Notes: generated from the letters alone by a model not told the origin. Counted from the stretch's first letter, positions 5,318 through 31,863 are shown. The stretch is 32,000 bases of DNA from Candidatus Lokiarchaeum ossiferum (GCA_025839675.1 CP104013.1:2280001-2312000), one strand, 5' to 3'. Numbers and translations: made by a program.

Positions 5318-6682
5318 TTATTTTACTTTTCGTATGAATTTTTGCATTTCACGCAACCGGTTGCGTAAAGTAACTTCAGTTATTCCCACTGTGCGCGAAA
5401 TCTTTGTTTGGCTGACTTTAATTTTATTGTGTTGAGCAGCGACGTATAATGCGGCTGCCACTAACCCCTTTGGATCTTTCCCACTTAATGAATAGACTTT
5501 TTCATATTTGATCAAAATTTTTTGGGCAAGTACTTCCACTTGATGATTCAATTCTAATTCAGCGATGTATTTGCTAACCAATAAACCCGGTTTAATTGTT
5601 GGACTCTGTAAATTAAGTTCTTTGATTAAAGATTGATAACACTTTGTAATTTGATGGAAAGTCGAATCACTGCAATTCACAATATTTTGCAAAGTGCGAG
5701 GGACTTGTTCAGCTCCACAAGCGTAATAAATCGATGCAGCAACCATGGCACGAATACTTCGCCCTTTTAGCAATCCAAGTTGAAAAGCTTTCCGATAAAG
5801 TTGAATAGCATATACCTTCACATGATTTGGTAAATTTAATAACTCTCCAATTCGTTTGATTTCACTGGTTGCTTGTATCATATTTCTTTGTTTCCAAGAA
5901 TAACGACTATCCCACTTAACCGCTTTTCGGAGTACTTCCGGCATCGGAGCTTTTTTGTCAATCATTGTCGCCATTTGTAGATCAGGAATCAAAGGATTCA
6001 CGGGCGAACCATGTGTTTGACGTTTATCTTGTTCAGATTTGGAAAACGCACGAGAACCACTATAGGCCATGGAAATAATTCTCTCTTGAACAATTAGTCC
6101 ACACTTCGAACATAAGCGTTCACTTCGTTCTTGATCAAAAATTATTTCGTGGAGAGTTCCATCAACACAATAATCTTCAGCATTATTAACCAAAGTACCA
6201 GCTTCATTTAATATGATATCATCTGGTCGAGTTGTTATAGGTACGGTAATTCGAATGATAGTAGATTTTATATAATTTTGTTCTTCAAAAGGAAAGGGAT
6301 GTTCAATATTATTTCGCAAAACGTAGAATGATATTCCTGAATGCTCCACCCAAAAATATTGGGAACCATCAGCAGTCAACCAATTTTCTCGCCCATAGAT
6401 TTTAAAAACATCATCCATGGTGCTTCTATTTAATATTATTCCATCTTCTGTTTTTCCTTGAAAAGGATGAACAAAACCAAGAGTTATTATTGGAGGATCA
6501 TCAACTTCGGCATTTTCTTGATAGTAGAAACATTTCCCTAAAGAAGTATACTTCATTTGAGTGGAGTAATTTTTGTGAAGGATTAATTCATCGGGTTCTC
6601 CATATCTTTGTATTACTATGTTTTTGGTGAGTTTACTTTCACGAAATTCACCTAAGCCGTATGCTGGAAAGATTGTTTTCAT
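5318..6682 (-). CDS. tfb: Transcription initiation factor B (TFB/TFIIB) paralogue with a roughly 165-aa N-terminal extension
   Basis: C-terminal two cyclin-fold repeats (AIQLYRKAF...GRSIRAMVAASIYYACG; GKDPKGLVAAALYVAAQ...VGITEVTLRNRLREM). Ribbon/B-reader region LCSKCGLIVQERIISMAYSGSRAFS. At 454 aa it is longer than the usual roughly 300-330. Confidence 0.9.
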   Translation of the reverse strand: MKTIFPAYGLGEFRESKLTKNIVIQRYGEPDELILHKNYSTQMKYTSLGKCFYYQENAEVDDPPIITLGFVHPFQGKTEDGIILNRSTMDDVFKIYGRENWLTADGSQYFWVEHSGISFYVLRNNIEHPFPFEEQNYIKSTIIRITVPITTRPDDIILNEAGTLVNNAEDYCVDGTLHEIIFDQERSERLCSKCGLIVQERIISMAYSGSRAFSKSEQDKRQTHGSPVNPLIPDLQMATMIDKKAPMPEVLRKAVKWDSRYSWKQRNMIQATSEIKRIGELLNLPNHVKVYAIQLYRKAFQLGLLKGRSIRAMVAASIYYACGAEQVPRTLQNIVNCSDSTFHQITKCYQSLIKELNLQSPTIKPGLLVSKYIAELELNHQVEVLAQKILIKYEKVYSLSGKDPKGLVAAALYVAAQHNKIKVSQTKISRTVGITEVTLRNRLREMQKFIRKVK

Positions 6683-9362: not shown

Positions 9363-11452
9363 TTGGATATTTCAAAGGACAAATTGAAATCCTTAGAAAA
9401 GATATTTAAGATTTTTTTTCTAAGATCTCCGAGCCATTTTTCATCAATCAAATTAATATCACCGACATTTTCTATCTCTTCTTGAAAAATGGATTCAAGT
9501 TTCTGACGATCTTGGAAAAATGGTTTTAATTTCTCCGAAAAAATTAATGTAAAGAGAAAATATGCTTTTTTATGCTGTCTTTCTTGTTTTTGGGAAGAAT
9601 CATTTAATGTTATCGCAAAAATTAAGGATCGAAGGTTTCGTTGACCAAAGGGCAAAATCCCAAATAATCCTTGATGGTACGTTTGTCCTTGACCCAATGC
9701 AGATGTATAAAGACTCCCACATAAGATTAAATCTTTAAACCAAAGGGGATCTTCTGGATCAAGATTATTTGCTTTCAATACCATCGGTCCCATCACTTCA
9801 TCAACCTTAAACAAAACCATAAAGGTATCTTGTAAATCTTTGAGCGTTATGCTAGATGAATAATGGGAATCAGTAGTTTTCTTGATCTCATCAACAGCTA
9901 ATGCTAAAAAAAGTTGATCAGATTCATCTTTCAGACTATTTTCTTGAGTATATTGTCCTGAAGTTAATGCTAAAAATTCTTCACTAATTCGTTTTAAATT
10001 TTCAAGTGAACTCTCCGAAGAGATTTTTATTGCTTCAGTGAAATTTTGAATCGCTTGTTCCGTTTGCATATTTATATTGTAGAGTGCACCTTGAATAATT
10101 AATAATGTAACATATTTTGGAACTAATCCTTTTGATTTCGAGAAAAATAACGATTCCTCAATATTTTTAGATGCTTTTTGGAGCAATAATTTTTCCTTTG
10201 TCTTCTTATATTGGATTAAATAATTCTGAGCCAGTAATATTTTGGCATTTAATTGGAGACCGTTATGGTGAGTTTTCTCAGATATCCAAAAGGCTCTATT
10301 TAGAGCTAATTCAGCCTCATAATATTGATGCTTTTCAATATTTATTTTTCCTTTCTCTATCAACACCTGAGCAGCACCAACTTCGGAATTACGCCCCCAC
10401 GCATATTTATCTGCTTCAATCAAATATTCAAATGATTTCTTAGAATCCATTAGACCCTGATATACTTGAGCCAAAGAAATTAGAATATTTATACGCTGCT
10501 CCGTCAATTCTGATTTATCAATAGTATCTAAAGCGAGCTTAAGTTGTTTTTTAGCTTCCTCAAAATTTCCACGTAAGATCCAGAAATTTGCAAATTGAGA
10601 ATATAGATCAATTTTTTGTATTTGATATTTAGTCATAGAAAATGTTTTTTCTAACTTCTCAAAAATTTCATGAGCTTCTGCAAATTTACCTTGCTCCGTC
10701 AAATATCCAGCATAGGTTATTTCAATTGAAACATCATGAATATCATTATCATGAGCAACTTGGATACCTTCTAAGAAATAATCTTTAGCTTGATTATGTT
10801 TTCCGAGTAAAATAAGTGATTCGGCAAGATTATTGGAAACAACAACAATTCCCTTATTGAATTTTAATTTTTTGCAAATATCATAGGCAATTTTAAAATA
10901 TTTTGCAGCTTCTTCTATTTTCCCAAGTGAAACGTAGGACATCGAGATATTATTTGAAATCCGTGCTTTTTCATAATCATATTTATCATAACCTTCGAGA
11001 ATTTTTTGATTATCTAAATAATAAGTTAACGATTTTTCAATAGAACCTTTGTTATAGAAAGCATGCGCCAAAGAATTGTTTGCACGAACTTTTAATAAAA
11101 TTTCGTCTTTATTTGTTAATTTTTCGAGAGCGTCATTGCATAAGTTGATACCCGCATCGTTTTCTCCTTGAAAAATCAATATTATTGCTTTCCCAATTAA
11201 GGCTTCAACTAATTCAAGACGATAATTATGATCTTGACAAATCTGAATACTTTTCTCATATTTTTCAGAAGCGAGTTCACTCAAACCTTTATCCCAATCA
11301 ATTTTTGCTAATCCATTCAAACATCTTGATTTGACCAATTGTGATCCAGTTTTACTTAAAATTTCTTCAAATATTAGTTTAGAATTGTCTGGATCTTCCA
11401 AAATTTTACTTTGAGCGAGTTCGATCTTTGTTTGAGTTTCGAAATCTGTCAC
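9359..11452 (-). CDS. TPR-repeat protein with a distinct C-terminal alpha/beta domain (longin/uDENN-like candidate)
   Basis: About 500 aa of degenerate 34-40 aa helical repeats with A/Y/F..G..eeA patterns (e.g. AHAFYNKGSIEKSLTYY, GKIEEAAKYFKIAYDI, GNFEEAKKQLKLAL). GTG start at 11452, with no in-frame ATG nearby. The C-terminal 160 aa are non-TPR. Confidence 0.85.
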   Translation of the reverse strand: MTDFETQTKIELAQSKILEDPDNSKLIFEEILSKTGSQLVKSRCLNGLAKIDWDKGLSELASEKYEKSIQICQDHNYRLELVEALIGKAIILIFQGENDAGINLCNDALEKLTNKDEILLKVRANNSLAHAFYNKGSIEKSLTYYLDNQKILEGYDKYDYEKARISNNISMSYVSLGKIEEAAKYFKIAYDICKKLKFNKGIVVVSNNLAESLILLGKHNQAKDYFLEGIQVAHDNDIHDVSIEITYAGYLTEQGKFAEAHEIFEKLEKTFSMTKYQIQKIDLYSQFANFWILRGNFEEAKKQLKLALDTIDKSELTEQRINILISLAQVYQGLMDSKKSFEYLIEADKYAWGRNSEVGAAQVLIEKGKINIEKHQYYEAELALNRAFWISEKTHHNGLQLNAKILLAQNYLIQYKKTKEKLLLQKASKNIEESLFFSKSKGLVPKYVTLLIIQGALYNINMQTEQAIQNFTEAIKISSESSLENLKRISEEFLALTSGQYTQENSLKDESDQLFLALAVDEIKKTTDSHYSSSITLKDLQDTFMVLFKVDEVMGPMVLKANNLDPEDPLWFKDLILCGSLYTSALGQGQTYHQGLFGILPFGQRNLRSLIFAITLNDSSQKQERQHKKAYFLFTLIFSEKLKPFFQDRQKLESIFQEEIENVGDINLIDEKWLGDLRKKILNIFSKDFNLSFEISN
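9412..9419 (+). terminator. T8 tract 50 nt past the GPN GTPase stop, embedded in the opposing TPR gene's coding sequence
   Basis: gaTTTTTTTTc on the plus strand. The same bases encode Lys codons (..RKKIL..) of the convergent gene. Confidence 0.35.
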
Positions 11453-11653
11453 ATCAGAAACATGTAGTTTTATTCCTAAATAGTTTATCCTTATAAAGAA
11501 ATTAGTATTTGGATAGACATATAATTAAATATAACTTATTCTTTGATCAGATTAGAAAGATCCGAATTTATCTGGAATTTTTCTTCTGAATGCATGTATT
11601 GGTGTTTGATGCTACAAGTGATGGGTTTTTACATAACAACGGTGAAAAGATGA

Positions 11654-12010
11654 ATGGGTGAAGAACATAGAGATACTCGACAACACGATCGAGATAGAAT
11701 AGCGCACAGACGGGAGGATAATGATTGTAGTGTGTATATAGGAAAGCGTCCGACCATGAACTACGTTATGGCGGCGATGGTAATCTTAAACAAGAACGAA
11801 GATTGTACAATTAAAGCACGCGGCAGAGCAATTTCCCATGCAGTCGATGTGGCAGAAATTCTCATCAATAAATTTTATCCGAGTGCTTTTTATAAAGACA
11901 TAAAGATTTCAACGGAACACTTACAGAATGATGACCATAAAGTTTCTAATGTCAGTTCAATGGAAATTGTTTTAGGACCACGCAAACCACAAGAACCAGA
12001 ACAAAATTAG
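11654..12010 (+). CDS. albA: DNA/RNA-binding protein Alba with charged N-terminal extension
   Basis: VYIGKRPTMNYVMAAMVILNK...IKARGRAISHAVDVAEILINKF matches the Alba core. It is preceded by MGEEHRDTRQHDRDRIAHRREDND. Confidence 0.9.
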   Translation: MGEEHRDTRQHDRDRIAHRREDNDCSVYIGKRPTMNYVMAAMVILNKNEDCTIKARGRAISHAVDVAEILINKFYPSAFYKDIKISTEHLQNDDHKVSNVSSMEIVLGPRKPQEPEQN

Positions 12011-12017
12011 ACAATCC

Positions 12018-12046
12018 TTTTTGAATACCAAAAAAAACTCTTTTTT
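12018..12046 (+). terminator. Oligo-T tracts (T5, T6) downstream of Alba
   Basis: ccTTTTTgaatacc...ctcTTTTTTaaa within 40 nt of the stop. Confidence 0.4.
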
Positions 12047-12107
12047 AAATTCTCTTCTTAAATAACTTTAAAATCCTTCAGTTTAAAAAAAACCTCCTTC
12101 TTTTCTT

Positions 12108-13196
12108 ATGATCACTTTTATTACCACCTTTGAAAATAAAAGATACATGGGCGATTTAGATGAAAAACTCGATCAATATTCCCAATATGAAAATTATGCA
12201 ATCATTTCCTCAAAGAATAATCGCTTAATTACTGATCAAAATAAGGTTTTTATCCCATTCCGAGCAGTCTATGAAATTGAAATGTTAGTTTCACTCTATT
12301 TAATCAATTATTCCTATGATTCAATTGAAAAAGGAGCGTTTTCAATGATGGATGTCAACGAATTAAGCAATCTTTTAGGAATCGCTGAAAAAAGCCTTTA
12401 TCGAAATATTGTTGAAAGATTTTTTGTATCCTTTGAAAAAATTAAGCCCATAAGATTAAATGCACGAGATAACAGCGATCGAAAACGAATGGGAAATGTA
12501 AATGCCTATTCTGAATCTCGAATACCTGCTTTTTTTGCTGTAGATCGGCTGAAGGTCAAATTCCTGATCTTAAAGAAAATTCTCACAAAACTGAAAGAAA
12601 ATGATTTTATTCTTCAAAAAATGACTTTATTGCAAATAGAACCAGATACAACCTTGGAAACTGTGGTATTCGAAGAATATTATAAATACCTAACGGAATA
12701 TTTTAATATTATAACCCCAAAAAAGGAGTTTTCTCATTCCAAACATAACGTTCTATATAGTATTGGCACTGAAAAGCTAGAAGAAATCCGCGGATATCTG
12801 AGTCTTGCCAAAAATTCACCATTAAATTATATTATGAGAAGTTTAAAATCTTCTCTTTTTGTGTGTAATTTAATCTTTACTCAAATGGATGTTCCAGATC
12901 CATTTTACCACACTGATGAAACAATCATCGATATTCGCGAAACCATTGCGGATCCCCAATTAATTCCGAGTTTGGTTCAGGAATTAGATGTCGCCTTAAG
13001 AAATAAAAATATCACAATGGCAGAAGAATTGCATGATAAGTTCGAATTATTAGTTAAACGTATTTTGAAAGCCCTTAGCAATGCAATCACAACTGCATCC
13101 AACGGACAGATTCATTTACGAGTAGAAGAGACTCTATATTCCACAGGAAGTATCTTTGAAAATGAAAAAAAGAGGGAAAAATTGGACAAGAAGTAA
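12108..13196 (+). CDS. Hypothetical protein (362 aa), mostly helical by composition, no recognisable motif
   Basis: Uninterrupted ORF with ATG start in a region with no competing long ORF. C-terminal K/E-rich tail. Confidence 0.55.
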   Translation: MITFITTFENKRYMGDLDEKLDQYSQYENYAIISSKNNRLITDQNKVFIPFRAVYEIEMLVSLYLINYSYDSIEKGAFSMMDVNELSNLLGIAEKSLYRNIVERFFVSFEKIKPIRLNARDNSDRKRMGNVNAYSESRIPAFFAVDRLKVKFLILKKILTKLKENDFILQKMTLLQIEPDTTLETVVFEEYYKYLTEYFNIITPKKEFSHSKHNVLYSIGTEKLEEIRGYLSLAKNSPLNYIMRSLKSSLFVCNLIFTQMDVPDPFYHTDETIIDIRETIADPQLIPSLVQELDVALRNKNITMAEELHDKFELLVKRILKALSNAITTASNGQIHLRVEETLYSTGSIFENEKKREKLDKK

Positions 13197-17816: not shown

Positions 17817-17863
17817 AACAAATAAAATTCATAAGGATCATCGTTCTAGTTAATTTGCAGTTT

Positions 17864-19657
17864 ATGAAATTCCCTACCAAAAAAATGTTTCATAATTTTT
17901 CCTACAAAACGAATCTAATAGTCGCATTTATTTTAGTTCTTATGCCCGTTTTTGTAGCTACTTCAATTTTTGTATATTCCAATAGCAAAAATAGGGCGGA
18001 GGCAGATTTTGAACAGTCGAAAATAAGATGTGAGTATGAAATCACTAGTACAATAAAATTGGTAGATGAAGGTTGGAAAATTTTTGAAAAATCTTTAGAA
18101 CAAAACATGATTGATGCATTTGAAGTGTTTGAAGCTGCATATAATGCATCGGGTTCAAATCCAGCCGAAATGAATTTAACAGCACTCCGGTCGGAAATTG
18201 GATTTAAATACGATTTATATATTATTAATGCTTCGGGAGTTATTATAGCTACAACCTATAAAACAGATCTATATTTGGATTTCTCCAATTTAACCACATT
18301 TTTTGCGATATTAACAGAAATTCGACAAGGTGATCAGTTTGTGTCTGATCGAATCACCACAGAAACACTAACTGGGATATTACGAAAATTTGCTTATATG
18401 CCTACACCGGATCATCAGTATTTATTGGAATTAGGGTTAGTTTCGGATGAATTCTCTTCTACAATTGATGAATTGAATTATTTAAACATTGCAGATAAAT
18501 TAATTCCCTTAGATCCCTACTTAGAAAATATCCGGATCTTCGACCGTTTGGCGTATCAAGAAGGACTTTCGGATTTTCAACCATCTCCAGAATTATTTGA
18601 TATCGTAAGATCTGTCTATGAAACTGGAAACAAATATGAATTTAAAAATGAGACCACAGGTCAATTGATCAAATATATTTTTGTTGACTTGAGTGATCCG
18701 AATTATCCGAGTAATATATCAAAAATCGTAGAAATTACATATAATAACAATTTGATTGAAGAAGAATTATTAGAATTACGGATTCAATTTATTTTCGCCA
18801 ATTTGCTTATAGTAAGTGTGATTTTAATCATAGTAATAGTCATCACAAAAATTTTCACAGCTCCCATTAATGAAATTGTTCAAGGTGTGAATGAAATAGC
18901 CAAGGGAGATCTAAATTATGTTATTGCCACCAAAACTCAAACAGATCTTCAGTCCATAGTAGAAAGTATCAATCTTATGGTTCGAGAACGGAAACGGATT
19001 GATGACGAGTTATTGCAGGAAGGAATAAATTTAAAAAAATCGTTAGAAGACAAGGAAATACTCCTAAAAGAAATTCATCATCGTGTTAAAAATAATTTAC
19101 AAATAATTTCAAGCTTAGCAAGATTGCAAAAAAATAGCGATATATCGACAGATATTATTCAGGCAAACAAAGATTTCCAAAATAGAATTCAAATAATGGC
19201 AATGATCCACGAAATATTATATGGTTCAAACGATATGGAATTTATTAATCTGGATCAGTATGTTACTCAATTAGTTGATTTTCTCTTTCGATCTTTCCAA
19301 ATTTCTAAATCAGAAATTCTTGTTGAAATTGAAATTGATGAAATACGATTAAATTTAGATCAAGGGGTATTATGTGGAATAATTATCAATGAAATTATCA
19401 CAAATGCCTTGAAGTATGCTTTTCCCAAGAAGTCTCTCTCCAATACTATTCATATCAATATCGAAGAACAAAATAACGGAACGATCACAATGGTTTTTAG
19501 CGATAATGGTGTGGGATTACCTTTAGACTTTGATCATGTCACAAGTAAGACTTTGGGAATGCAACTTATATATGGCTTGTCAAAACAGTTAGGAGGATCA
19601 ATATCAGTATACCGAGATAGTGGTCTAAGATATGAAATTAGCTTCAAAAAAATATAA
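17864..19657 (+). CDS. Membrane sensor histidine kinase (periplasmic-type sensor domain, HAMP, HisKA_2, HATPase_c)
   Basis: Two hydrophobic segments ([21 protein letters not shown]; [19 protein letters not shown]) flank a roughly 270-aa loop. HAMP-like [22 protein letters not shown]. Phospho-acceptor box [20 protein letters not shown] (HisKA_2 type). N and G boxes [14 protein letters not shown] and [12 protein letters not shown] 17864 is preferred over TTG 17855. Confidence 0.85.
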
Positions 19658-21676: not shown

Positions 21677-24148
21677 ATGAAATTAAAAATCAATATTAAT
21701 AGCTTTCGAGTTAAAATGCTGCTGATAGCAATAGTAATGCCCGCAATTTTTATGTTAGGTATGAATATTATCAGCGGTTTAACCGTAAGGAATAATATTA
21801 CAGCTTTTGTTGAGAATGAAATTCAATTAAACTCAGAACAGGTGGCTTTATTAGTCGAAGAAGGAGATAAAAATCTGGAGAGAGCGTATTTTAATGCAAA
21901 CGAAAGTTTCGATACTCAAATTCGAGATCAAGTCTATTCACTCTACTCAGACATTGAATTCTATTACAATGAGGTCCAAGAAGGAAGACTGAACACATCA
22001 GAAGCACAAATATTGGCTAAAAATTTAACTAATAATAAGCGATATGGGGAAGATCTGTCTCAATATTTTTGGATTTATAACAGCACTCACCATTCAATTG
22101 CCCATGGAACACATCCAGAACGATATGGATTATCCTATTCGACAAGCCAAACTGCTATCGATTTTGTGGACATGGCTTTAAATTCTAATGATAATGAGGG
22201 ATATGTATTTTATGCCCAAGTAGGAACCGATATCTTGAAAAAAGCATTTGTGAAAGGTTTTGAACCTTGGGGATGGGCAGTTTGTACAGGTACAACATTA
22301 GCGAATATTGAAAATGAATTTGCTGCTTTAAAAAATGAAACTGTTTCAGATCTTAAAACAAATCTAGCTTCCATGGAAGTACTGGACGGAGGATATATTG
22401 CAATTTTAGATAGTAATGAATCCGTAATATATCATCCAGATAAATCGGTTGAGGGAACAACATTTACCGCTTTGGATGAAATCTCAGGGGATCGACTTTC
22501 CAGTAAAATGTTTACAACCGACACCGGTTTTTTGGAATACGGATATCAAGGAGATGTGAAATTGATGTATGTCGCCCACGTAGAAGGAGACTATTTAGAT
22601 TACTATGTATTTTCTGCTGTAACTAAAGATGCAATTACTTCCTCCGTTCGAGCGACCACAAATATTCAATATATTGTTATGGGTGCAGGAATTGCAATTA
22701 TGATTGTCATCGGATTGTTTTTTGCCCAGAGTATGAGTAATCCAATCATTGATTTAACTTCAAAATCAAAAATGATAGCCAACCAAGAATATGTCGAAAA
22801 TGTCCAAAACGATCGGAAAGATGAAATAGGCGAACTTTCTGTAGCTTTAGGAGAAATGGTAAAGAATATACAAAATCAAATAGAATATAACCGAGCAATC
22901 ATCGATACATCTCCTAATCCACAAATATTATTGGATGAAGCTTATAATATTGTTGATGTAAATGTAGAAACAACAAAAATTTTAGGTATTTCAAAAGATC
23001 AGATCATTGGAGAACCAATTAGAATTGTATTTGGAAATTCAGCGGAATATGAAGAAGCAATTGATAAAATTCGAAAAGAAAATAAGCTAAAAGATTATCA
23101 AATGACTCCAAAATCAAAACAAGGCACGCAATATCGCATGCTATCAGATCTTGATATCATGAATGATAAAAAGGGAAATTTTCTAGGTTATTTAATGACT
23201 TTTTCAGACATAACAAGCATAATCACCTTGATTGATAATGTGAAAGGAGTTGCAAATGAAGTTTCTGCCATGGCTCAACAATTAAGTGAATCCTCCAATC
23301 AAATAAATATTTCAATTCAAGAGATCACATCTGGGTCCCAAGATGTAGCCCGAGGGGCCCAACATCAAACACAGTCAGTGAATCAAATTTCTAACGCAGT
23401 CTCCGATGTGCAAAATGAAAGTCAAGTTTTAGTTTCCCGAACATTGAAAATTGCAACAGAATCTAAAGAAGGACAGGAAATGGCCCAAGAAGGAAAAACT
23501 TTGACAAATTCATTAGCAAATCAAATTGAAGAAATTAACAAAGGTGCGGGTTATGTGGCAGAAGTAATGGGATCTTTATCAAAGAAGAGCAGTGCAATAA
23601 ATAAAATCGTTGATGTCATTTCAGGTATTGCAACCGAAACGAATTTGTTAGCTTTGAACGCAGCCATTGAAGCTGCACGAGCAGGAGATGCGGGGAAAGG
23701 ATTTGCCGTAGTTGCAGAACAAGTCCGAAAACTGGCTGAAGATTCCAAGCAAGCAGCAGATCAGATCAACGAATTGATAAGTGCCATCCAAACTGAAGTC
23801 TCACTTGCGGTTAGTGCAACTGATGAAACAGTTTTACAGGTCAAAAATGGAAAAAATGCCTTAGAGGGAACTTCCACAAAATTGGATGCCCTTTTTGAAA
23901 TAATAAATAAAACCGATTTAGGTATTCAAGATGCGATTCAGTCTATTAAAGCAAGTGATGAAAACATTAATGAAATTGCATCCAATGTCCAAAATATTAA
24001 CGCTGTAATTGAGCAATCATCAGGCACAGCCCAAGAACTGTCATCCTCAACAGAAGAAATGGCATCAACGCTCGAAGAAATGAGTGCTGCAGCAGAAGAA
24101 TTAAATGCCGCCGCTGAACGACTATTTATTGAAGTTGATAAAATTTAA
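21677..24148 (+). CDS. Methyl-accepting chemotaxis protein (TM, double Cache-like sensor, TM, HAMP, PAS, MCP signalling domain)
   Basis: Signalling hairpin [36 protein letters not shown]. Cache-like [22 protein letters not shown] and [23 protein letters not shown]-like [25 protein letters not shown]. Two hydrophobic segments. Confidence 0.92.
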
Positions 24149-24420: not shown

Positions 24421-25239
24421 ATGAAAGTTACATTATATTACTTTTCAGGCACAGGAAATACGCAATTAATCTGTAATTCTATGAAGGAAGAATTTAAAAA
24501 AGCAAATTACTCCGTCAACTTGATCCCGATTGAGAATGCTAAACCCAATCTATTACCTCAAGCAGATATATACGGAATAGCCTTCCCGATCGCAATTCAT
24601 ACAACTTATCCCTTTGTACGGAGATTTATTGAAGCGCTTCCATTGAATGAAGCACACAGCATTTTTGCACTATCAACAATGGCAGGTACTCGTACAGGGT
24701 TATTTAATTATTTTCTAAATCTCCAGAAAAAGAGAAATTTTCAGATTTTAGGGTTGAAAAATATTAGGATGCCAAACAATTATTTTCCAAAACAGATAAT
24801 TGTTGAAGAAAATGAGAAAAGAATTGAGCGAGGAATAGAATCGGCTGAAAAATTTGCTCAAGATATCATTACCAGAGAAATTTTTAAATACAAAAAAGAT
24901 TTTCTTTCAAGACTTTTTAATCCCGTTGGAAATTCGAAATGGTTATGGACATTAATTAAAAAAATGTATAACTTCAAAATTATTGAAGATAAGTGTCAAA
25001 TCTGTCAAATCTGTATAAAGGAATGCCCCACCAAGAATTTCGAGTTAATCGAAAACCAGGTTTTGCGAAAAAACAATTGCGAATTGTGTCTCCGGTGTCT
25101 CGCCTTGTGTCCAAATAATGCAATCCAAGTTAATAAAAAATCATATGTAATCTACAAACGAAATCGTGAACAATTGATGGCAAATTTTAAAGAGAAGGTA
25201 ATCCTTACATCTTCTGTTATAGATTATGAACATAGATGA
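24421..25239 (+). CDS. EFR1-type flavodoxin-like / 2x[4Fe-4S] ferredoxin fusion protein
   Basis: N-terminal MKVTLYYFSGTGNT (flavodoxin-like phosphate loop). C-terminal CQICQICIKECP and CELCLRCLALCP cluster motifs. Confidence 0.85.
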   Translation: MKVTLYYFSGTGNTQLICNSMKEEFKKANYSVNLIPIENAKPNLLPQADIYGIAFPIAIHTTYPFVRRFIEALPLNEAHSIFALSTMAGTRTGLFNYFLNLQKKRNFQILGLKNIRMPNNYFPKQIIVEENEKRIERGIESAEKFAQDIITREIFKYKKDFLSRLFNPVGNSKWLWTLIKKMYNFKIIEDKCQICQICIKECPTKNFELIENQVLRKNNCELCLRCLALCPNNAIQVNKKSYVIYKRNREQLMANFKEKVILTSSVIDYEHR

Positions 25240-27678: not shown

Positions 27679-28623
27679 ATGGAATCATCTATTAGTAAAT
27701 TACGGTTGGATTATCTGAATACCTTCAATTTTCTGGTCAAATACAAGAGTTTTTCAGAAACGGCTCGAATTTTGAATAAAACCCAAGGCACTATCTCAAT
27801 GCACATAAAAGAATTGGAACATGCCTTTGGAGGGACAAACCACAAACAATTACTGATAGATAGAAATTCCAAAAACTTCCAATTAACACCTGAAGGATTT
27901 CTGCTGTACTCTGCAACACAAAAAGTTGAAGAAATAATTAATAATGTGTCCAAAAAAATTGATGAATCCATTGGTAAAAAGCAAAAAATAATCGAAATAC
28001 AATCTTCTTCAATCCCGGGGGAATATATCCTTCCCGCCTACATTTTGAAATATAACAGTAAACATACTAACGTTATGATTGAAGCGCTTATTTCAAACTC
28101 ACAAGAAGCATTGAGAAGAATGCGAGAATCTAAATCGACTTTTTGCGCGATTGGAGGATGGTTTGGAGAATTCGAGGCAGATTATGACGTAAAAGTGATT
28201 GGGAAGGATACAATTGTCATAATTGGGAGAGAAAAACACCCGATTTTTGATAAGTTGAAAAAAAGGGGAATAAATTACTCACGAGATGATATGATTAATG
28301 ATTTGAAAGAATATAATTGGATATTCAGAGAATCGGGTTCAGCAACTCTTGATTGGTTTATGAAACATTTTCCAAGATCCCAAGAAATTCAAATCGGATT
28401 GAAATTTCATAATAATTCTTCAATTTTGCACGCATTGGAAAATAGCGACGCTCTAACAGCTCTAAGTTCGTTTGTTGTTCCATCTACTGTGAAAAATTGG
28501 GCTTTGAAAGTCATTAAACATAAAACACTACCCATAATAGAGCGAAACTTGTATTTAATTAAAAGAAAAGGAATTAAACTTCAAGATTTCGAACAGAAAT
28601 TCTGGGATCTTTTTAACCATTAA
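27679..28623 (+). CDS. LysR-family transcriptional regulator
   Basis: N-terminal HTH LNTFNFLVKYKSFSETARILNKTQGTISMHIKELEHAFG...L..R..K.FQLTPEG, followed by a roughly 200-aa periplasmic-binding-protein-like effector domain. Confidence 0.88.
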   Translation: MESSISKLRLDYLNTFNFLVKYKSFSETARILNKTQGTISMHIKELEHAFGGTNHKQLLIDRNSKNFQLTPEGFLLYSATQKVEEIINNVSKKIDESIGKKQKIIEIQSSSIPGEYILPAYILKYNSKHTNVMIEALISNSQEALRRMRESKSTFCAIGGWFGEFEADYDVKVIGKDTIVIIGREKHPIFDKLKKRGINYSRDDMINDLKEYNWIFRESGSATLDWFMKHFPRSQEIQIGLKFHNNSSILHALENSDALTALSSFVVPSTVKNWALKVIKHKTLPIIERNLYLIKRKGIKLQDFEQKFWDLFNH

Positions 28624-28703
28624 CTATTAGAATTTCAAATAATTAACTTAATAATTATAGATGCTATTGGAAAAGGCGATAACTTCAACTAATTCTTCAT
28701 AAT

Positions 28704-28713
28704 TTTTATAAAG
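28704..28713 (+). promoter_or_regulatory. TATA-like box about 26 nt upstream of the first YeeE/YedE gene
   Basis: TTTTTATAAA centred about 26 nt before ATG 28734. Confidence 0.35.
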
Positions 28714-28733
28714 ATTGAGAAAGTTATCAAATT

Positions 28734-29267
28734 ATGGTGTCAGAGGATTCTACATCTAAGTTAAAAAAAATTATCCGAAACCCCATCTTTTTGGGATGTA
28801 TAATTGGATTTTTAGCTGCGGTGACTCAAGCATTGCTAATTGGTGCAGGAGGGCCCGAAGCTTATGGATTTTGTGTTGCGTGTCACACACGAGATTTGGT
28901 GAATGACATAATAAACCTAATTGTTGGAGAACCTGTATTAGGAGTAGCCCCTATTTCACAAAATGCAATTTTTGCAGTATTAACCATTATTGGAGTGATG
29001 ATCGGAGCGTTTATTTCTGCCAAGGTGAATAAAGAATTTAAAATCAAAAAATCTTCCCTAGGATCTTATCTGATCTATCTACTTGGAGGAATATTAGTAT
29101 TGATTTTTGCTTTACTTTTAGGAGCATGTCCATATCGAGCAGCACTTCGTTTTGGTTATGGAGATATGGTTGCATTAATAGGAATATTGGCAATGGCATT
29201 GGGTGTTTTTGTAGGAGTAAAAATAATTTTGAAACGAATGGAAAACCAAATGGAGGAAGAGGCATAA
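28734..29267 (+). CDS. YeeE/YedE-family sulfur(selenium)-compound transporter, N-terminal half
   Basis: Polytopic membrane protein with GFCVACHTRD and LLGACPYRA motifs, which correspond to the conserved Cys re-entrant loops of the Sulf_transp repeat. Confidence 0.8.
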   Translation: MVSEDSTSKLKKIIRNPIFLGCIIGFLAAVTQALLIGAGGPEAYGFCVACHTRDLVNDIINLIVGEPVLGVAPISQNAIFAVLTIIGVMIGAFISAKVNKEFKIKKSSLGSYLIYLLGGILVLIFALLLGACPYRAALRFGYGDMVALIGILAMALGVFVGVKIILKRMENQMEEEA

Positions 29268-29268
29268 A

Positions 29269-29775
29269 ATGGCAGGATGGTTATCAGCTGAAGCAGCATA
29301 TATCGCGGTACCAATTGTAACTTTATTCTTAGGAATACTCATTGGATATTTAGCACAACAATCTGGATTTTGTTCTATTGGAGGAATACGAGATCTATTC
29401 TTATTTAAACATACACGACTTTTCTTTGGATATCTTGCACTTATTGTATCTTCTTTTGTGAGTTATTTGATATTTTCTTTAATATGGTCCGGAGAATTTC
29501 CAAATTTCTTCTGGGCAATTAAGAATGGAATTACAACACCTATTCCAGGAGCACCGGGCGGTTTAGCAAATTGGGCATATATAATCCTTGCAATAATTGG
29601 AGGATTGGGACTGGGAATACTAGGAGTTTTCTTAGGAGGATGTCCGTTACGTCAAACAGTCATGGGTTTTGAAGGAAATATCAAATCAATATTCTTCATA
29701 GTTGGGATGTTGATAGGAGCAGTCGTTTTTCACTTGTGGATAGCAAGTTGGGTAGTAAGCTTATTTGGGGGTTAA
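29269..29775 (+). CDS. YeeE/YedE-family transporter, C-terminal half
   Basis: SGFCSIGGIRD and LGGCPLRQ motifs with four hydrophobic segments. The start codon lies 1 nt after the previous stop. Confidence 0.8.
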   Translation: MAGWLSAEAAYIAVPIVTLFLGILIGYLAQQSGFCSIGGIRDLFLFKHTRLFFGYLALIVSSFVSYLIFSLIWSGEFPNFFWAIKNGITTPIPGAPGGLANWAYIILAIIGGLGLGILGVFLGGCPLRQTVMGFEGNIKSIFFIVGMLIGAVVFHLWIASWVVSLFGG

Positions 29776-29803
29776 TTCTTTTTTTATTTGAAAGGTGAGA
29801 CTA

Positions 29804-30031
29804 ATGACAGAACACAAGATTGATATCACTGGGAAAATTTGTCCGTTTTGCTTATTGTTAATTAAGAAAAAATTGGCTAAAATAGATGAAGGAGATAATT
29901 TGATTGTTACATGTGACCACCCTCCTGCTGCAATCGATACTATCCCTTATGCAATGAAAAAAATTGGGTATCCCGTCGAATCAAAGAAGATTGAATCGGG
30001 AGTATGGGAACTGAAAATCACTAAATCATAG
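29804..30031 (+). CDS. tusA: TusA/SirA-family sulfur carrier protein
   Basis: IDITGKICPFCLLLIKKKLAKIDEGDNLIV matches the TusA pattern (G..CP.P....k..l..l..G..L.v). GGTGA lies 5 nt before ATG 29804, which is preferred over the track's GTG 29795. Confidence 0.85.
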   Translation: MTEHKIDITGKICPFCLLLIKKKLAKIDEGDNLIVTCDHPPAAIDTIPYAMKKIGYPVESKKIESGVWELKITKS

Positions 30032-30039
30032 AGATTATT

Positions 30040-31212
30040 ATGTCGAATTCTCTCTTTTTTTTATTTTCGGAAAAAATATCTCCAGAACGATTGGAGTGGA
30101 TCTCTTTAATTCAAAATTTCTCCAAAAATACACTGACTATTGGAATTACGGGGGATGCCCTATATTCTTTTACAGATCAAAGCTTATTTCCAGAATGGGA
30201 ATCTATAATACGTAACCAAAGATGCAATATTCATCTGGATCAATGGGAGGCAGAAATCCGGGGAATCACGATAAAATCGCTAACAAAAAACTACAAAATT
30301 TCTTCCCTTACAAATATTAAATTATCAAAGAATATCAAAATAGGATTTTGGGATGCCATTCTCCAACTTGAAGAATTTAGAAATTTTAAAGATAATTATA
30401 TGGGATTTCTCCAAATGAAAGGTCCCTATATGAGCCGTAATTCAGTTTATGCAGTTAATTTCTTAGAATCCTCATTAAAGAATAAAAAAAAAGCTCAATT
30501 GTTGTGCTATTTAGATGGAGTTCACACAGGACATATAAATCAAGCACCTTCAGAATTTGAGAATATTGGTAGACTAATTTCCATGTATACAGATCCTCAA
30601 ACGCATAACAATCAGATAATGGAAACTCTGGCATGTTCTCGTTGTTGTATCGCTCGAGGTTATGGAGAAATAAACCAGAATAATGAGGAATACAAAGCAA
30701 AATCAGTAATTGATGGGTTTCGAATTTGCAATTTAAATGAAATTGTGGATCAATTCGAGCGAAGTTCTCCCATTTTTGCACCGAATGTGGGGATGTGGAT
30801 CAATTCCACTGAAAAAAAATTTATTTCTTCCCCCGAAATCTTGTTGATGATGACCCACACCCCATATCAAGAAGAATTTACCTTTGGAGGGTTGTCATTT
30901 GCGATGGCTTGTGCAAATCATGGCATTCATGTCTCTATTTTATTTGTTGAAGATGGAATTTATAATCTTGTTGGAGAACACAAAATCCATTCTCAAGATC
31001 ACGTATTCAACATTCAAGAAATCGTAGATGTCACATGGGAAATGGACAAAATCGACTATTACATATACACACCTTCAATATTGAGGAGAAATGTATCAAT
31101 TAATGGATATTTGAATTTTGTAAACCCACTCTCAACTGAGGAATTACAGTTGTTGATTTCGAAACATACAAACCAAGAAAATTCAAATATGGGGAGAATA
31201 ATATTTTTTTAA
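30040..31212 (+). CDS. Single-chain protein with three DsrE/DsrF/DsrH (TusD/C/B)-like domains
   Basis: Three repeats of the DsrE-fold signature. Domain 1: LTIGITGDALYS...NIHLDQWEAEIRGI. Domain 2: LQMKGPYMSRNSVYAVNFL...LLCYLDGVHTG...LACSRCCIARGYG. Domain 3: MMTHTPYQEEFTFGGLSFAMA...ILFVEDGIYNLV...YYIYTPSILRRNV...GRIIFF. Confidence 0.65.
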   Translation: MSNSLFFLFSEKISPERLEWISLIQNFSKNTLTIGITGDALYSFTDQSLFPEWESIIRNQRCNIHLDQWEAEIRGITIKSLTKNYKISSLTNIKLSKNIKIGFWDAILQLEEFRNFKDNYMGFLQMKGPYMSRNSVYAVNFLESSLKNKKKAQLLCYLDGVHTGHINQAPSEFENIGRLISMYTDPQTHNNQIMETLACSRCCIARGYGEINQNNEEYKAKSVIDGFRICNLNEIVDQFERSSPIFAPNVGMWINSTEKKFISSPEILLMMTHTPYQEEFTFGGLSFAMACANHGIHVSILFVEDGIYNLVGEHKIHSQDHVFNIQEIVDVTWEMDKIDYYIYTPSILRRNVSINGYLNFVNPLSTEELQLLISKHTNQENSNMGRIIFF

Positions 31213-31238
31213 AGGCATTTTCATAAAGGGAAAGAAAA

Positions 31239-31466
31239 ATGGATAAACCTAAAGAAGTTCAAGATTTCACACACTTCACTTGCACAAATCTAATGCTGAA
31301 ACTGAAAATCTTATTAAAAAAATTAAGATCAGGGGAGAATCTACATTTCTTTTCAACTCGAGAACAATATGCTAACATTGAAAAACCGTTCTCCAAAGCT
31401 CCTTATTCCTTTGATGCACAAAAAGTGGAAGATAATACATATCTGATCAAAATTTTTAAGGATTGA
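31239..31466 (+). CDS. Second, divergent TusA-like protein (CPxP motif replaced by CTNL)
   Basis: FTHFTCTNLMLKLKILLKKLRSGENLHFFS...YLIKIFK follows the TusA layout and length (75 aa), but the Cys is not flanked by Pro. Confidence 0.5.
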   Translation: MDKPKEVQDFTHFTCTNLMLKLKILLKKLRSGENLHFFSTREQYANIEKPFSKAPYSFDAQKVEDNTYLIKIFKD

Positions 31467-31522
31467 AAGAAAAATTACAATTAACAATACTGATAAAATA
31501 AAAATCCACAAGATTCACTCGG

Positions 31523-31529
31523 TTTTTTT
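31523..31529 (+). terminator. T7 tract about 57 nt after the last gene of the sulfur-relay operon
   Basis: cggTTTTTTTcc is the first long T tract after 31466. A T7 also sits at 29780-29786 inside the operon. Confidence 0.4.
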
Positions 31530-31551
31530 CCATCACAATCAAGAATACATC

Positions 31552-31863
31552 TTGTTTTCTTTGAAAAACTCCATTAAAGACTTTTTATACTTTCAAAATA
31601 TGGACAAAACTATTCAAGCGCTCTTTTTTGGAGACAATTTCCAGGAAAAAATTCCCCAAATCATGAAAACACCCGATGAAAATTGCATTGAATGTAATCT
31701 CGGACGCAATATAATTGGAGGAATCTCAAAGGATGGTAATGATCAAGTCGATTTTGGTCTACAACCAGAAGATGCAAATCAAATTCTTCATCTTTTAAAG
31801 AAGCATCCTGCCTTAATTAATTTCAAACCAGACAATTTTGATTTAATATCTGAGGATCAATAA
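31552..31863 (+). CDS. Hypothetical small protein (start ambiguous: TTG 31552 or ATG 31600)
   Basis: ORF only. No motif recognised beyond a single CIEC. Confidence 0.4.
   Translation: MFSLKNSIKDFLYFQNMDKTIQALFFGDNFQEKIPQIMKTPDENCIECNLGRNIIGGISKDGNDQVDFGLQPEDANQILHLLKKHPALINFKPDNFDLISEDQ

Follow-up and report, generated by a model that had tools for sequence, protein, structure and literature searches.

A predicted LysR_Se/HrsM-like-regulated operon for selenium acquisition and trafficking in the archaeon Candidatus Lokiarchaeum ossiferum

The stretch of DNA considered here, referred to below as the window, is 32,000 nucleotides (nt) long and comes from Candidatus Lokiarchaeum ossiferum (GCA_025839675.1, CP104013.1:2280001-2312000). 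Towards its right-hand end lies what its sequence identifies as a conserved archaeal gene cluster, encoding a two-piece membrane channel, small cysteine-bearing carriers and a regulator. This cluster is interpreted, with a probability that we put at about 0.6, as a selenium acquisition and trafficking operon under the control of a LysR_Se/HrsM-like regulator. It is most likely an archaeal variant of the YedE/YedF/LysR_Se selenium system, itself previously predicted and unproven, with two new components, a triple-DsrE fusion carrying a CxRC motif and a small protein carrying a CxEC motif. An initial annotation of the same DNA had hesitated between sulfur and selenium as the substrate; the choice now tilts to selenium, on the strength of the best-matching curated models, of the linkage of the cluster to selD in relatives and of published transcript data on split yedE, tusA and tusD in selenium-starved Methanococcus maripaludis, where they rise. 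The features of the cluster, all on the + strand, are as follows.

27679-28623, +: LysR-type regulator, 314 amino acids (aa); Pfam and NCBIfam profiles
28666-28688, +: conserved 23-nt block ATTGGAAAA-N4-ATAACTTCAA, immediately 5' of the TATA box of yedE
28705-28712, +: TATA-like box TTTATAAA, read from the sequence
28734-29267, +: N-terminal half of YedE, a membrane protein of 177 aa that carries GFCVAC and GACPYR; TIGR04112 and Sulf_transp
29269-29775, +: C-terminal half of YedE, 168 aa, with SGFCSIGG and GGCPLR; TIGR04112
29804-30031, +: TusA-fold carrier, 75 aa from its ATG, with CPFC; Pfam TusA
30040-31212, +: three-domain DsrE-fold fusion, 390 aa; Pfam DsrE, AlphaFold2 (AF2) model and Foldseek
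31239-31466, +: divergent TusA-like protein, 75 aa, with TCTN; ortholog matches to TusA
31495-31863, +: gene for the small CxEC protein, of an uncharacterised family; alignment with 19 orthologs
31523-31529, +: T7 tract, inside the conserved CxEC reading frame

The six open reading frames (ORFs) of the initial annotation, from the regulator to the TusA-like protein, were confirmed, as were the gaps of 1, 28, 8 and 26 nt between the last five of them when TusA is taken to start at ATG 29804, which fits the N-termini of its homologs (GTG 29795 is an alternative). All of the cysteine motifs that had been quoted are present, and they are near-invariant in about 57 related loci. The description of a LysR gene upstream of five clustered genes also stands, but the end of the module cannot be placed at 31466, for a sixth conserved gene follows. 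The T7 tract that had been read as a terminator after the last gene codes for V-F-F in the conserved frame of this sixth gene and so is not clearly an operon terminator. Related loci were collected by looking up identical proteins and by scanning one genome for each GTDB species, and the gene content of the resulting 58 non-redundant loci (numbered with the prefix L where they need to be told apart) was determined by BLAST of the window proteins against all of their ORFs. A core of four genes, for the two YedE halves, the DsrE fusion and the TCTN TusA-like protein, is complete and of constant order in all 58 loci with enough flank, 37 of them from Methanoregulaceae and 21 Asgard-like (Lokiarchaeia/Promethearchaeia, Hermod- and Odin-labelled metagenome-assembled genomes (MAGs) and a few that are unclassified). 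The first TusA and a further small protein are shared by the Asgard loci, L011 and a few of the Methanoregula loci, and most Methanolinea loci lack them. The conserved order, the gaps of 1-28 nt and the single TATA-like box fit a predicted single operon from 28734 onwards. A protein of 970-985 aa with HEAT/Adaptin_N-like repeats is encoded directly upstream of the cluster in nine Asgard loci, including L009 (2524-5475), L010 (2660-5575) and L017, three loci of the selD type.

Profile searches bore out the assignment of the first two genes to a split YeeE/YedE protein. The best model for both halves is TIGR04112 (seleno_YedE), with a lead of more than 40 bits in each case: the N-terminal half scores 70.5 bits over positions 4-137 and the C-terminal half 76.4 bits over positions 180-308, against 27.5 and 19.3 bits, respectively, for the TsuA/YeeE model NF041049, both scores being far below the cutoff of the latter (645 bits). 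The selenium models are likewise the best ones for orthologs. Two adjacent ORFs 1 nt apart thus cover first the N-terminal and then the C-terminal part of TIGR04112, which is the form reported for archaeal YedE, in which two adjacent genes encode four to five transmembrane segments each, with conserved cysteines (PMC5322559). Pfam Sulf_transp gave 48 bits with the N-terminal half, above its cutoff, and 26.5 bits with the C-terminal half, and a phmmer comparison with the solved TsuA structure 6LEO was weak (E=0.06), the cysteine of GACP in the N-terminal half being aligned with Cys293. Among the related loci GFCxAC is kept in 54 of 56 and GxCPYR in 56 of 56 N-terminal halves, and both SG[FY]CSIG and GGCPxR are found in every one of 57 C-terminal halves.

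The regulator matches Pfam HTH_1 and LysR_substrate, both above cutoff, and its best NCBIfam model is NF040786 (LysR_Sec_metab), which it matches over positions 3-294 of 298 with 162 bits; the next-best LysR family scored 88 bits, 74 lower. Its orthologs in L012, L002, L006 and L056 score alike on NF040786 (161-162 bits), and the protein thus appears closest to the LysR subfamily associated with selenium metabolism (LysR_Se/HrsM-like). One LysR homolog is labelled as a cysJI activator in JGI. As the scores of the regulator and of the YedE halves all lie below the curated cutoffs, these proteins are described as nearest to the selenium families and not as certified members of them.

The TATA-like element reported in the initial annotation is present, with its centre about 25 nt 5' of the yedE-N ATG at 28734, a spacing which implies a leaderless or near-leaderless transcript. 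Just upstream of it, the 19 specified bases of the 28666-28688 block (all except the N4 spacer) recur in L012 in the same relative place, the remainder of the L012 intergenic region having diverged around the block, which makes it a candidate operator for the LysR regulator. A near-copy with two mismatches occurs at 24955-24977 within the ORF of an Fer4 protein (24421-25239) and is probably due to chance; two matches were obtained in 1 of 100 shuffles, though one of the two matches is the site from which the pattern was derived. No convincing inverted repeats were seen around the LysR gene, an Rfam scan of the window found no RNA family, and a scan for sigma-70 promoters and intrinsic terminators gave no signal above that of shuffles, such models not being applicable to archaea.

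The genes that adjoin the cluster in relatives also connect it with selenium. In 10 Asgard-like contigs (L008, L009, L010, L015, L016, L017, L018, L020, L024 and L066) the CxEC gene is followed on the same strand by a gene with AIRS and AIRS_C domains, and in L047, which is labelled Bathyarchaeota, such a gene lies upstream on the opposite strand. The L009 copy scored 185.8 bits against the selD model TIGR00476 (cutoff 125), and all 11 copies have an in-frame TGA within the sequence ...VKIHG-U-SCKLG, which identifies them as genes for selenocysteine (Sec)-containing SelD. A candidate Sec-containing SelD directly downstream in relatives, and not in the L. ossiferum cluster, fits the earlier suggestion that the final acceptor is encoded elsewhere. 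The LysR gene was found at five distinct loci: in L. ossiferum and L012 it points the same way as the cluster, whereas it is divergent at L002, L006 and L056, which are of the Harpocratesius type; selD adjoins none of the five, and hence the two arrangements look like alternatives. Sec proteins are encoded both by Ca. Harpocratesius (GCA_021498095), which has the LysR-type variant, and by the L010 genome (PMC11227280 supplement), and Sec use has been reported for 85.9% of Lokiarchaeia (PMC11227280). Two of the 11 Sec-selD genes are in an Odin-labelled MAG (GCA_048885285.1; L008/L021, 2104-3075) and in L047 (3586-4578); neither Odinarchaeota nor Bathyarchaeota have been reported as Sec users, and the presence of the gene there reflects either misbinning or unrecognised Sec use. 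A conserved MoCF_biosynth (CinA-like) gene and a gene for a 185-aa unknown protein follow selD in the Asgard loci.

The first of the small soluble proteins was correctly assigned to the TusA family, with a Pfam PF01206 score of 57.3 bits (gathering cutoff 28.6). Instead of the canonical CPxP it carries CPFC, and CPxC is found in 22 of 23 orthologs. Curated models do not discriminate further (32 bits for YedF PRK11018, 29 for TsuB and 25.5 for TusA), and the selenium_YedF fusion model TIGR03527 was matched with only 23 bits (cutoff 110) over its TusA part, positions 1-68 of 194.

The 390-aa protein encoded by the next gene comprises three domains, D1 (approximately residues 1-118), D2 (119-258) and D3 (259-390). 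Pfam PF02635 (DsrE) was matched by residues 267-353 with 38.7 bits (gathering cutoff 22.7); residues 127-240 are TusD-like (TIGR03012, 34.1 bits) and residues 267-376 TusC-like (TIGR03010, 31.7 bits), both below the respective cutoffs of 89 and 94; D2 is described as TusD/DsrE-like and D3 as TusC/DsrF-like. An AF2 model with a predicted local distance difference test score (pLDDT) of 84.9 and a predicted template-modelling score of 0.88 was matched by Foldseek to DsrE (2hy5_A), TusC/TusD (2d1p) and YchN, each with a probability of 1.0 and a target template-modelling score of about 0.73-0.77. An alignment of 26 homologs showed C199 and C202 (CSRC..ARGY), GPYMSR and YLDGVHxGHxxQxPSEFENI to be invariant, and CxRCxxARGY occurs in 57 of 58 loci; in L. 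ossiferum the C199-S-R-C202 of D2 is encoded by nt 30634-30645. From the alignment of the model, together with the ARG that follows, C199 would occupy the active-site position of TusD/DsrE. A profile-profile comparison of the three domains gave E=0.1-0.4, D1 not being significantly similar to D2 or D3. Given this lack of significant sequence similarity, the DsrE-like nature of D1 rests on the alternating beta-alpha secondary structure of the AF2 model and on unfused relatives, in which there are three tandem small DsrE-fold genes, the middle one carrying ACSRCxxARGY. The term triple-DsrE used in the initial annotation is therefore a fair description in which D1 is the least certain domain. Stand-alone matches resembling D1 in a representative search were rejected as truncated or chimeric fragments of the fusion.

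The gene that always follows the fusion gene encodes a protein with TCTN, a motif kept in 58 of 58 loci. Its own match to Pfam TusA is below the gathering cutoff (14.9 bits, E=0.024), yet 14 of 18 orthologs match TusA, the best at 6e-8; it is accordingly termed TusA-like and not a curated member, and the earlier recognition of a second TusA-like protein holds at the family level. Between this gene and selD in relatives lies the CxEC gene. In L. ossiferum it is represented by ORF 31552-31863, homologous to the gene of 114-127 aa that is next in line in relatives. The protein contains CIECNLG...GGIS.DG, of which C-x-E-C-x-L-G and GG[IV]S.D are invariant in the 19-ortholog alignment, and CxEC itself is present in 19 of 20 proteins. 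Searches of Pfam, NCBIfam and Protein Data Bank (PDB) profiles gave no match, and a single-sequence structure model (pLDDT 36) had no usable fold. The only canonical starts are TTG 31552 and ATG 31600, and similarity reaches to about 31495 (...KIKIHKIHSVFFHHNQEYILFS...). Within window positions 31447-31600 the conserved N-terminus is in frame with no ATG, GTG or TTG before TTG 31552, and ATT, ATA and ATC are present, which suggests either that a non-canonical start is used or that the gene is N-terminally shortened in L. ossiferum, and in neither case would the T7 tract be plain intergenic DNA. In a Methanoregula MAG (L022, 11436-12701) one protein combines the CxEC domain with a BcrAD/BadFG-type activase ATPase, in another (L023) the CxEC gene (11438-11875) and the activase gene (11872-12702) are adjacent, and L011 (8621-9460) has HGD-D, C_GCAxxG_C_C and OsmC genes nearby. 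This association hints at an ATP-driven low-potential reduction tied to the relay. The neighbours in L011, L022 and L023 include activase, HGD-D, C_GCAxxG_C_C and class-V aminotransferase genes; in bacteria, counterparts of the activase, of the dehydratase subunit and of the aminotransferase are encoded in selenium neighbourhoods.

A selenium system containing these protein families has been proposed before. Zhang et al. 2008 described a SirA/TusA-like protein with a DsrE-like C-terminus encoded beside selD in bacteria (PMC2432076), and Lin et al. 2015 proposed YedE, YedF and LysR_Se as selenium genes, noting that YedE co-occurs with SelD and equating LysR_Se with HrsM (PMC5322559). The L. ossiferum cluster shares with this set the split YedE membrane protein, TusA/SirA-fold and DsrE-fold proteins with CxxC, a LysR of the selenium clade and, in relatives, the linkage to selD. 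It differs in that TusA and DsrE are encoded by separate genes and not as a YedF fusion, that the CGxC of YedF is replaced by CxRC in a three-domain DsrE chain, and that a second TusA-like (TCTN) protein and a CxEC protein are added; the cluster scores below the curated cutoffs, and what the reference set does is likewise only a prediction. In Methanococcus maripaludis the same three families and a LysR regulator make up a selenium regulon (HrsM, yedE MMJJ_13000/13010 and tusD/tusA MMJJ_07490/07500), in which transcripts of all three protein families change with the supply of selenium (PMC11097638). Funkner et al. 2024 found that on selenium depletion both yedE halves were up by 5.3-5.4 log2 and tusD/tusA by about 4.6 log2 (PMC11097638). 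The M. maripaludis genes are dispersed and TusD is apparently single-domain, whereas in L. ossiferum the genes are clustered, and the two sets are likened by family and not as established orthologs.

On this basis a route for selenium can be proposed. The two YedE halves would pair into a YeeE/TsuA-like channel, with pore cysteines that let in a selenium species, and the channel would pass the chalcogen to the cytoplasmic TusA (CPxC), just as TsuA has YeeD/TsuB as its recipient. TusA would hand it to the single-chain DsrE trimer, where the CxRC at the TusD/DsrE active site of the central domain could bind selenium, either in an S-Se-S bridge or as a perselenide, and let it go in reduced form. 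The TCTN TusA-like and CxEC proteins may be further carrier or redox partners, and the final acceptor would be selenophosphate synthetase, SelD, whose gene is directly downstream of the cluster in many relatives and would lie elsewhere in the L. ossiferum genome. The LysR protein would tune expression to selenium status, possibly via the 28666-28688 block. A stronger proposition is that there is a complete dedicated pathway, from the channel to TusA (CPxC), the DsrE trimer (CxRC), the TCTN TusA-like and CxEC proteins and finally Sec-SelD, in which CxxC pairs carry S-Se-S adducts, unlike persulfide relays; this is decidedly more tentative, and we would not yet favour it.

A number of observations weigh against assigning the cluster to selenium. 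The TIGR04112 scores of the two YedE halves sum to about 147 bits, below the cutoff of 200, and the 162 bits of the regulator do not reach the NF040786 cutoff of 250. SelD of L. ossiferum itself is so far only a predicted part of the route: of 703 matches in a SelD protein search with a Lokiarchaeial query, the best 120 included none from the 6.03-Mb L. ossiferum chromosome. Deletion of yedE in M. maripaludis caused no clear defect in selenium uptake (PMC11097638), and TsuA/TsuB, the sole biochemically characterised relatives, carry thiosulfate. None of the 37 Methanoregulaceae core loci has selD within 10 kb; within the Methanomicrobiales SelD was found only in Methanoplanus (PMC5322559), and Methanoregulaceae are not known as Sec users. 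Finally, about 14 of these 37 loci adjoin genes for a CVC-motif ArsR-type regulator, ArsP_1, LMWPc (ArsC-like), DGC, DsbD_2 and DUF2703. The core may therefore handle chalcogen more generally.

The best of the alternative explanations, which we nevertheless consider unlikely, is that this is a sulfur module whose channel takes in thiosulfate or other sulfur and whose TusA and DsrE proteins relay persulfide to tRNA thiolation, cofactors or assimilation. The Pfam families concerned are Sulf_transp, TusA and DsrE, the structures matched are those of DsrEFH and TusBCD, 37 Methanoregulaceae loci have the core and no selD nearby, the neighbours of L011 include genes for a NIR_SIR sulfite-reductase-like protein and a class-V aminotransferase, and there is the cysJI label on a LysR homolog. 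However, the TsuA, TsuB, TusD and TusC models score far below their own cutoffs and below the selenium models, the match to the solved TsuA structure is weak, selD is adjacent in 11 contigs, and the CPxC, CxRC and CxEC pairs are unlike the single cysteines of the persulfide carriers TusA (CPxP) and TusD.

TsuA(YeeE)/TsuB(YeeD) (6LEO, 8J4C) belong to the same membrane superfamily, with pore cysteines at the equivalent GxC and an adjacent TusA-fold partner, but the relationship is distant by the scores given above, and the L. ossiferum channel is split, its partner carries CPxC and the linkage is to selD, not to sulfur assimilation. TusBCD/DsrEFH (2D1P, 2HY5) share with the fusion the three DsrE-fold modules, a central cysteine at the position equivalent to Cys78 of TusD/DsrE and followed by ARG, and a TusA-type donor encoded beside them; in the cluster the modules form one fused chain with a two-cysteine CxRC active site, D1 has no detectable sequence similarity to TusB/DsrH, and the TusD and TusC scores are about one third of the cutoffs.

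Rather less probable still is a role in chalcogen or metalloid homeostasis or detoxification, in which selenite, tellurite or arsenic-thiol compounds would be exported or sequestered and SelD would not be supplied. Such a role would accord with the ArsR-type, ArsP_1, LMWPc, DGC, DsbD_2 and DUF2703 genes beside about 14 of the 37 Methanoregulaceae loci, with an AhpD-core CxxC protein in Harpocratesius-type loci whose best model is arsenosugar-associated, and with the suggestion that YedE might be a selenium exporter (PMC5322559). Against it, selD, which encodes an assimilatory enzyme, is directly linked in Asgard genomes, the yedE, tusA and tusD genes of M. maripaludis are induced by selenium starvation and not by excess, and there are no arsenic genes in the neighbourhood of the L. 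ossiferum cluster. The AhpD-core protein, which carries CEWC and whose best NCBIfam model is an arsenosugar-biosynthesis-associated peroxidase-like family, ends the loci L002 (8039-8455), L006 and L056; the 138-aa putative membrane protein encoded just past the window in L. ossiferum (L001, 11857-12273) is unrelated to it. Chance adjacency of independent units is highly improbable and effectively refuted by conservation. A transcript might end at the T7 tract or in the 85-133 nt before the next canonical start, but two archaeal lineages keep the same order throughout 58 non-redundant loci, with genes that overlap or are 1-28 nt apart.

The selenium operon proposed here appears to be an ordinary archaeal operon with no obvious sign of import. 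The initial annotation was right to call the genome Asgard-like: the 390-aa product of 30040-31212 is 100% identical to NEF87_001908 of Ca. Lokiarchaeum ossiferum and the LysR product of 27679-28623 is 100% identical to NEF87_001904, and the window has genes for TFIIB, Alba, a GPN-loop GTPase and a Ras-family small GTPase as well. The view that the gene set and its regulator are bacterial in style does not hold, however, as close homologs of the fusion and of LysR are all archaeal, the G+C content of the locus matches that of its flanks, and split YedE and LysR_Se (HrsM) had already been described for archaea (PMC5322559). The G+C content ranges from 0.28 to 0.37 across the window with no compositional step at the locus, and the nearest bacterial LysR matches are only about 29-30% identical, for which reasons a recent transfer from bacteria was rejected. 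Nor is the proximity of a Rab-like GTPase gene to be regarded as unusual, adjacency of a small GTPase to the cluster not being kept in other loci.

How selenium is taken up and safely delivered to selenophosphate synthetase is still an open question, and a 2026 review states that a specific high-affinity transporter for selenium has yet to be identified in prokaryotes (PMC13188914). The deletion in M. maripaludis is the only genetic test of yedE in an archaeon, and its outcome was negative (PMC11097638). The cluster joins all of the suspected players, a YedE channel, TusA, DsrE and a LysR_Se-type regulator, and in many Asgard genomes it abuts a Sec-containing selD; the CxRC triple-DsrE fusion and the CxEC protein come in addition, both of them unstudied. 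If the pathway is as proposed, it would be present in a cultivated Asgard archaeon, from the lineage closest to eukaryotes, and because the organism is in culture expression of the cluster can be tested against selenium supply. Its proteins are of a size and solubility that suit assays of selenium binding and of coupling to SelD.

Some other genes of the window deserve mention. At its left end (464-2134, - strand) is a gene for a divergent protein resembling the beta subunit of carbon monoxide dehydrogenase/acetyl-CoA synthase (CdhC, ACS_CODH_B_C; weak scores). The TFIIB homolog (5318-6682, - strand) is 454 aa long, with about 170 extra residues N-terminal to the zinc ribbon, and is thus an unusually long archaeal transcription factor B. 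A HAMP/HisKA_2 histidine kinase and an 823-aa methyl-accepting chemotaxis protein with dCache, HAMP, PAS and MCPsignal domains are encoded at 17855-19657 and 21677-24148, these being two signalling proteins of bacterial type in an Asgard genome.

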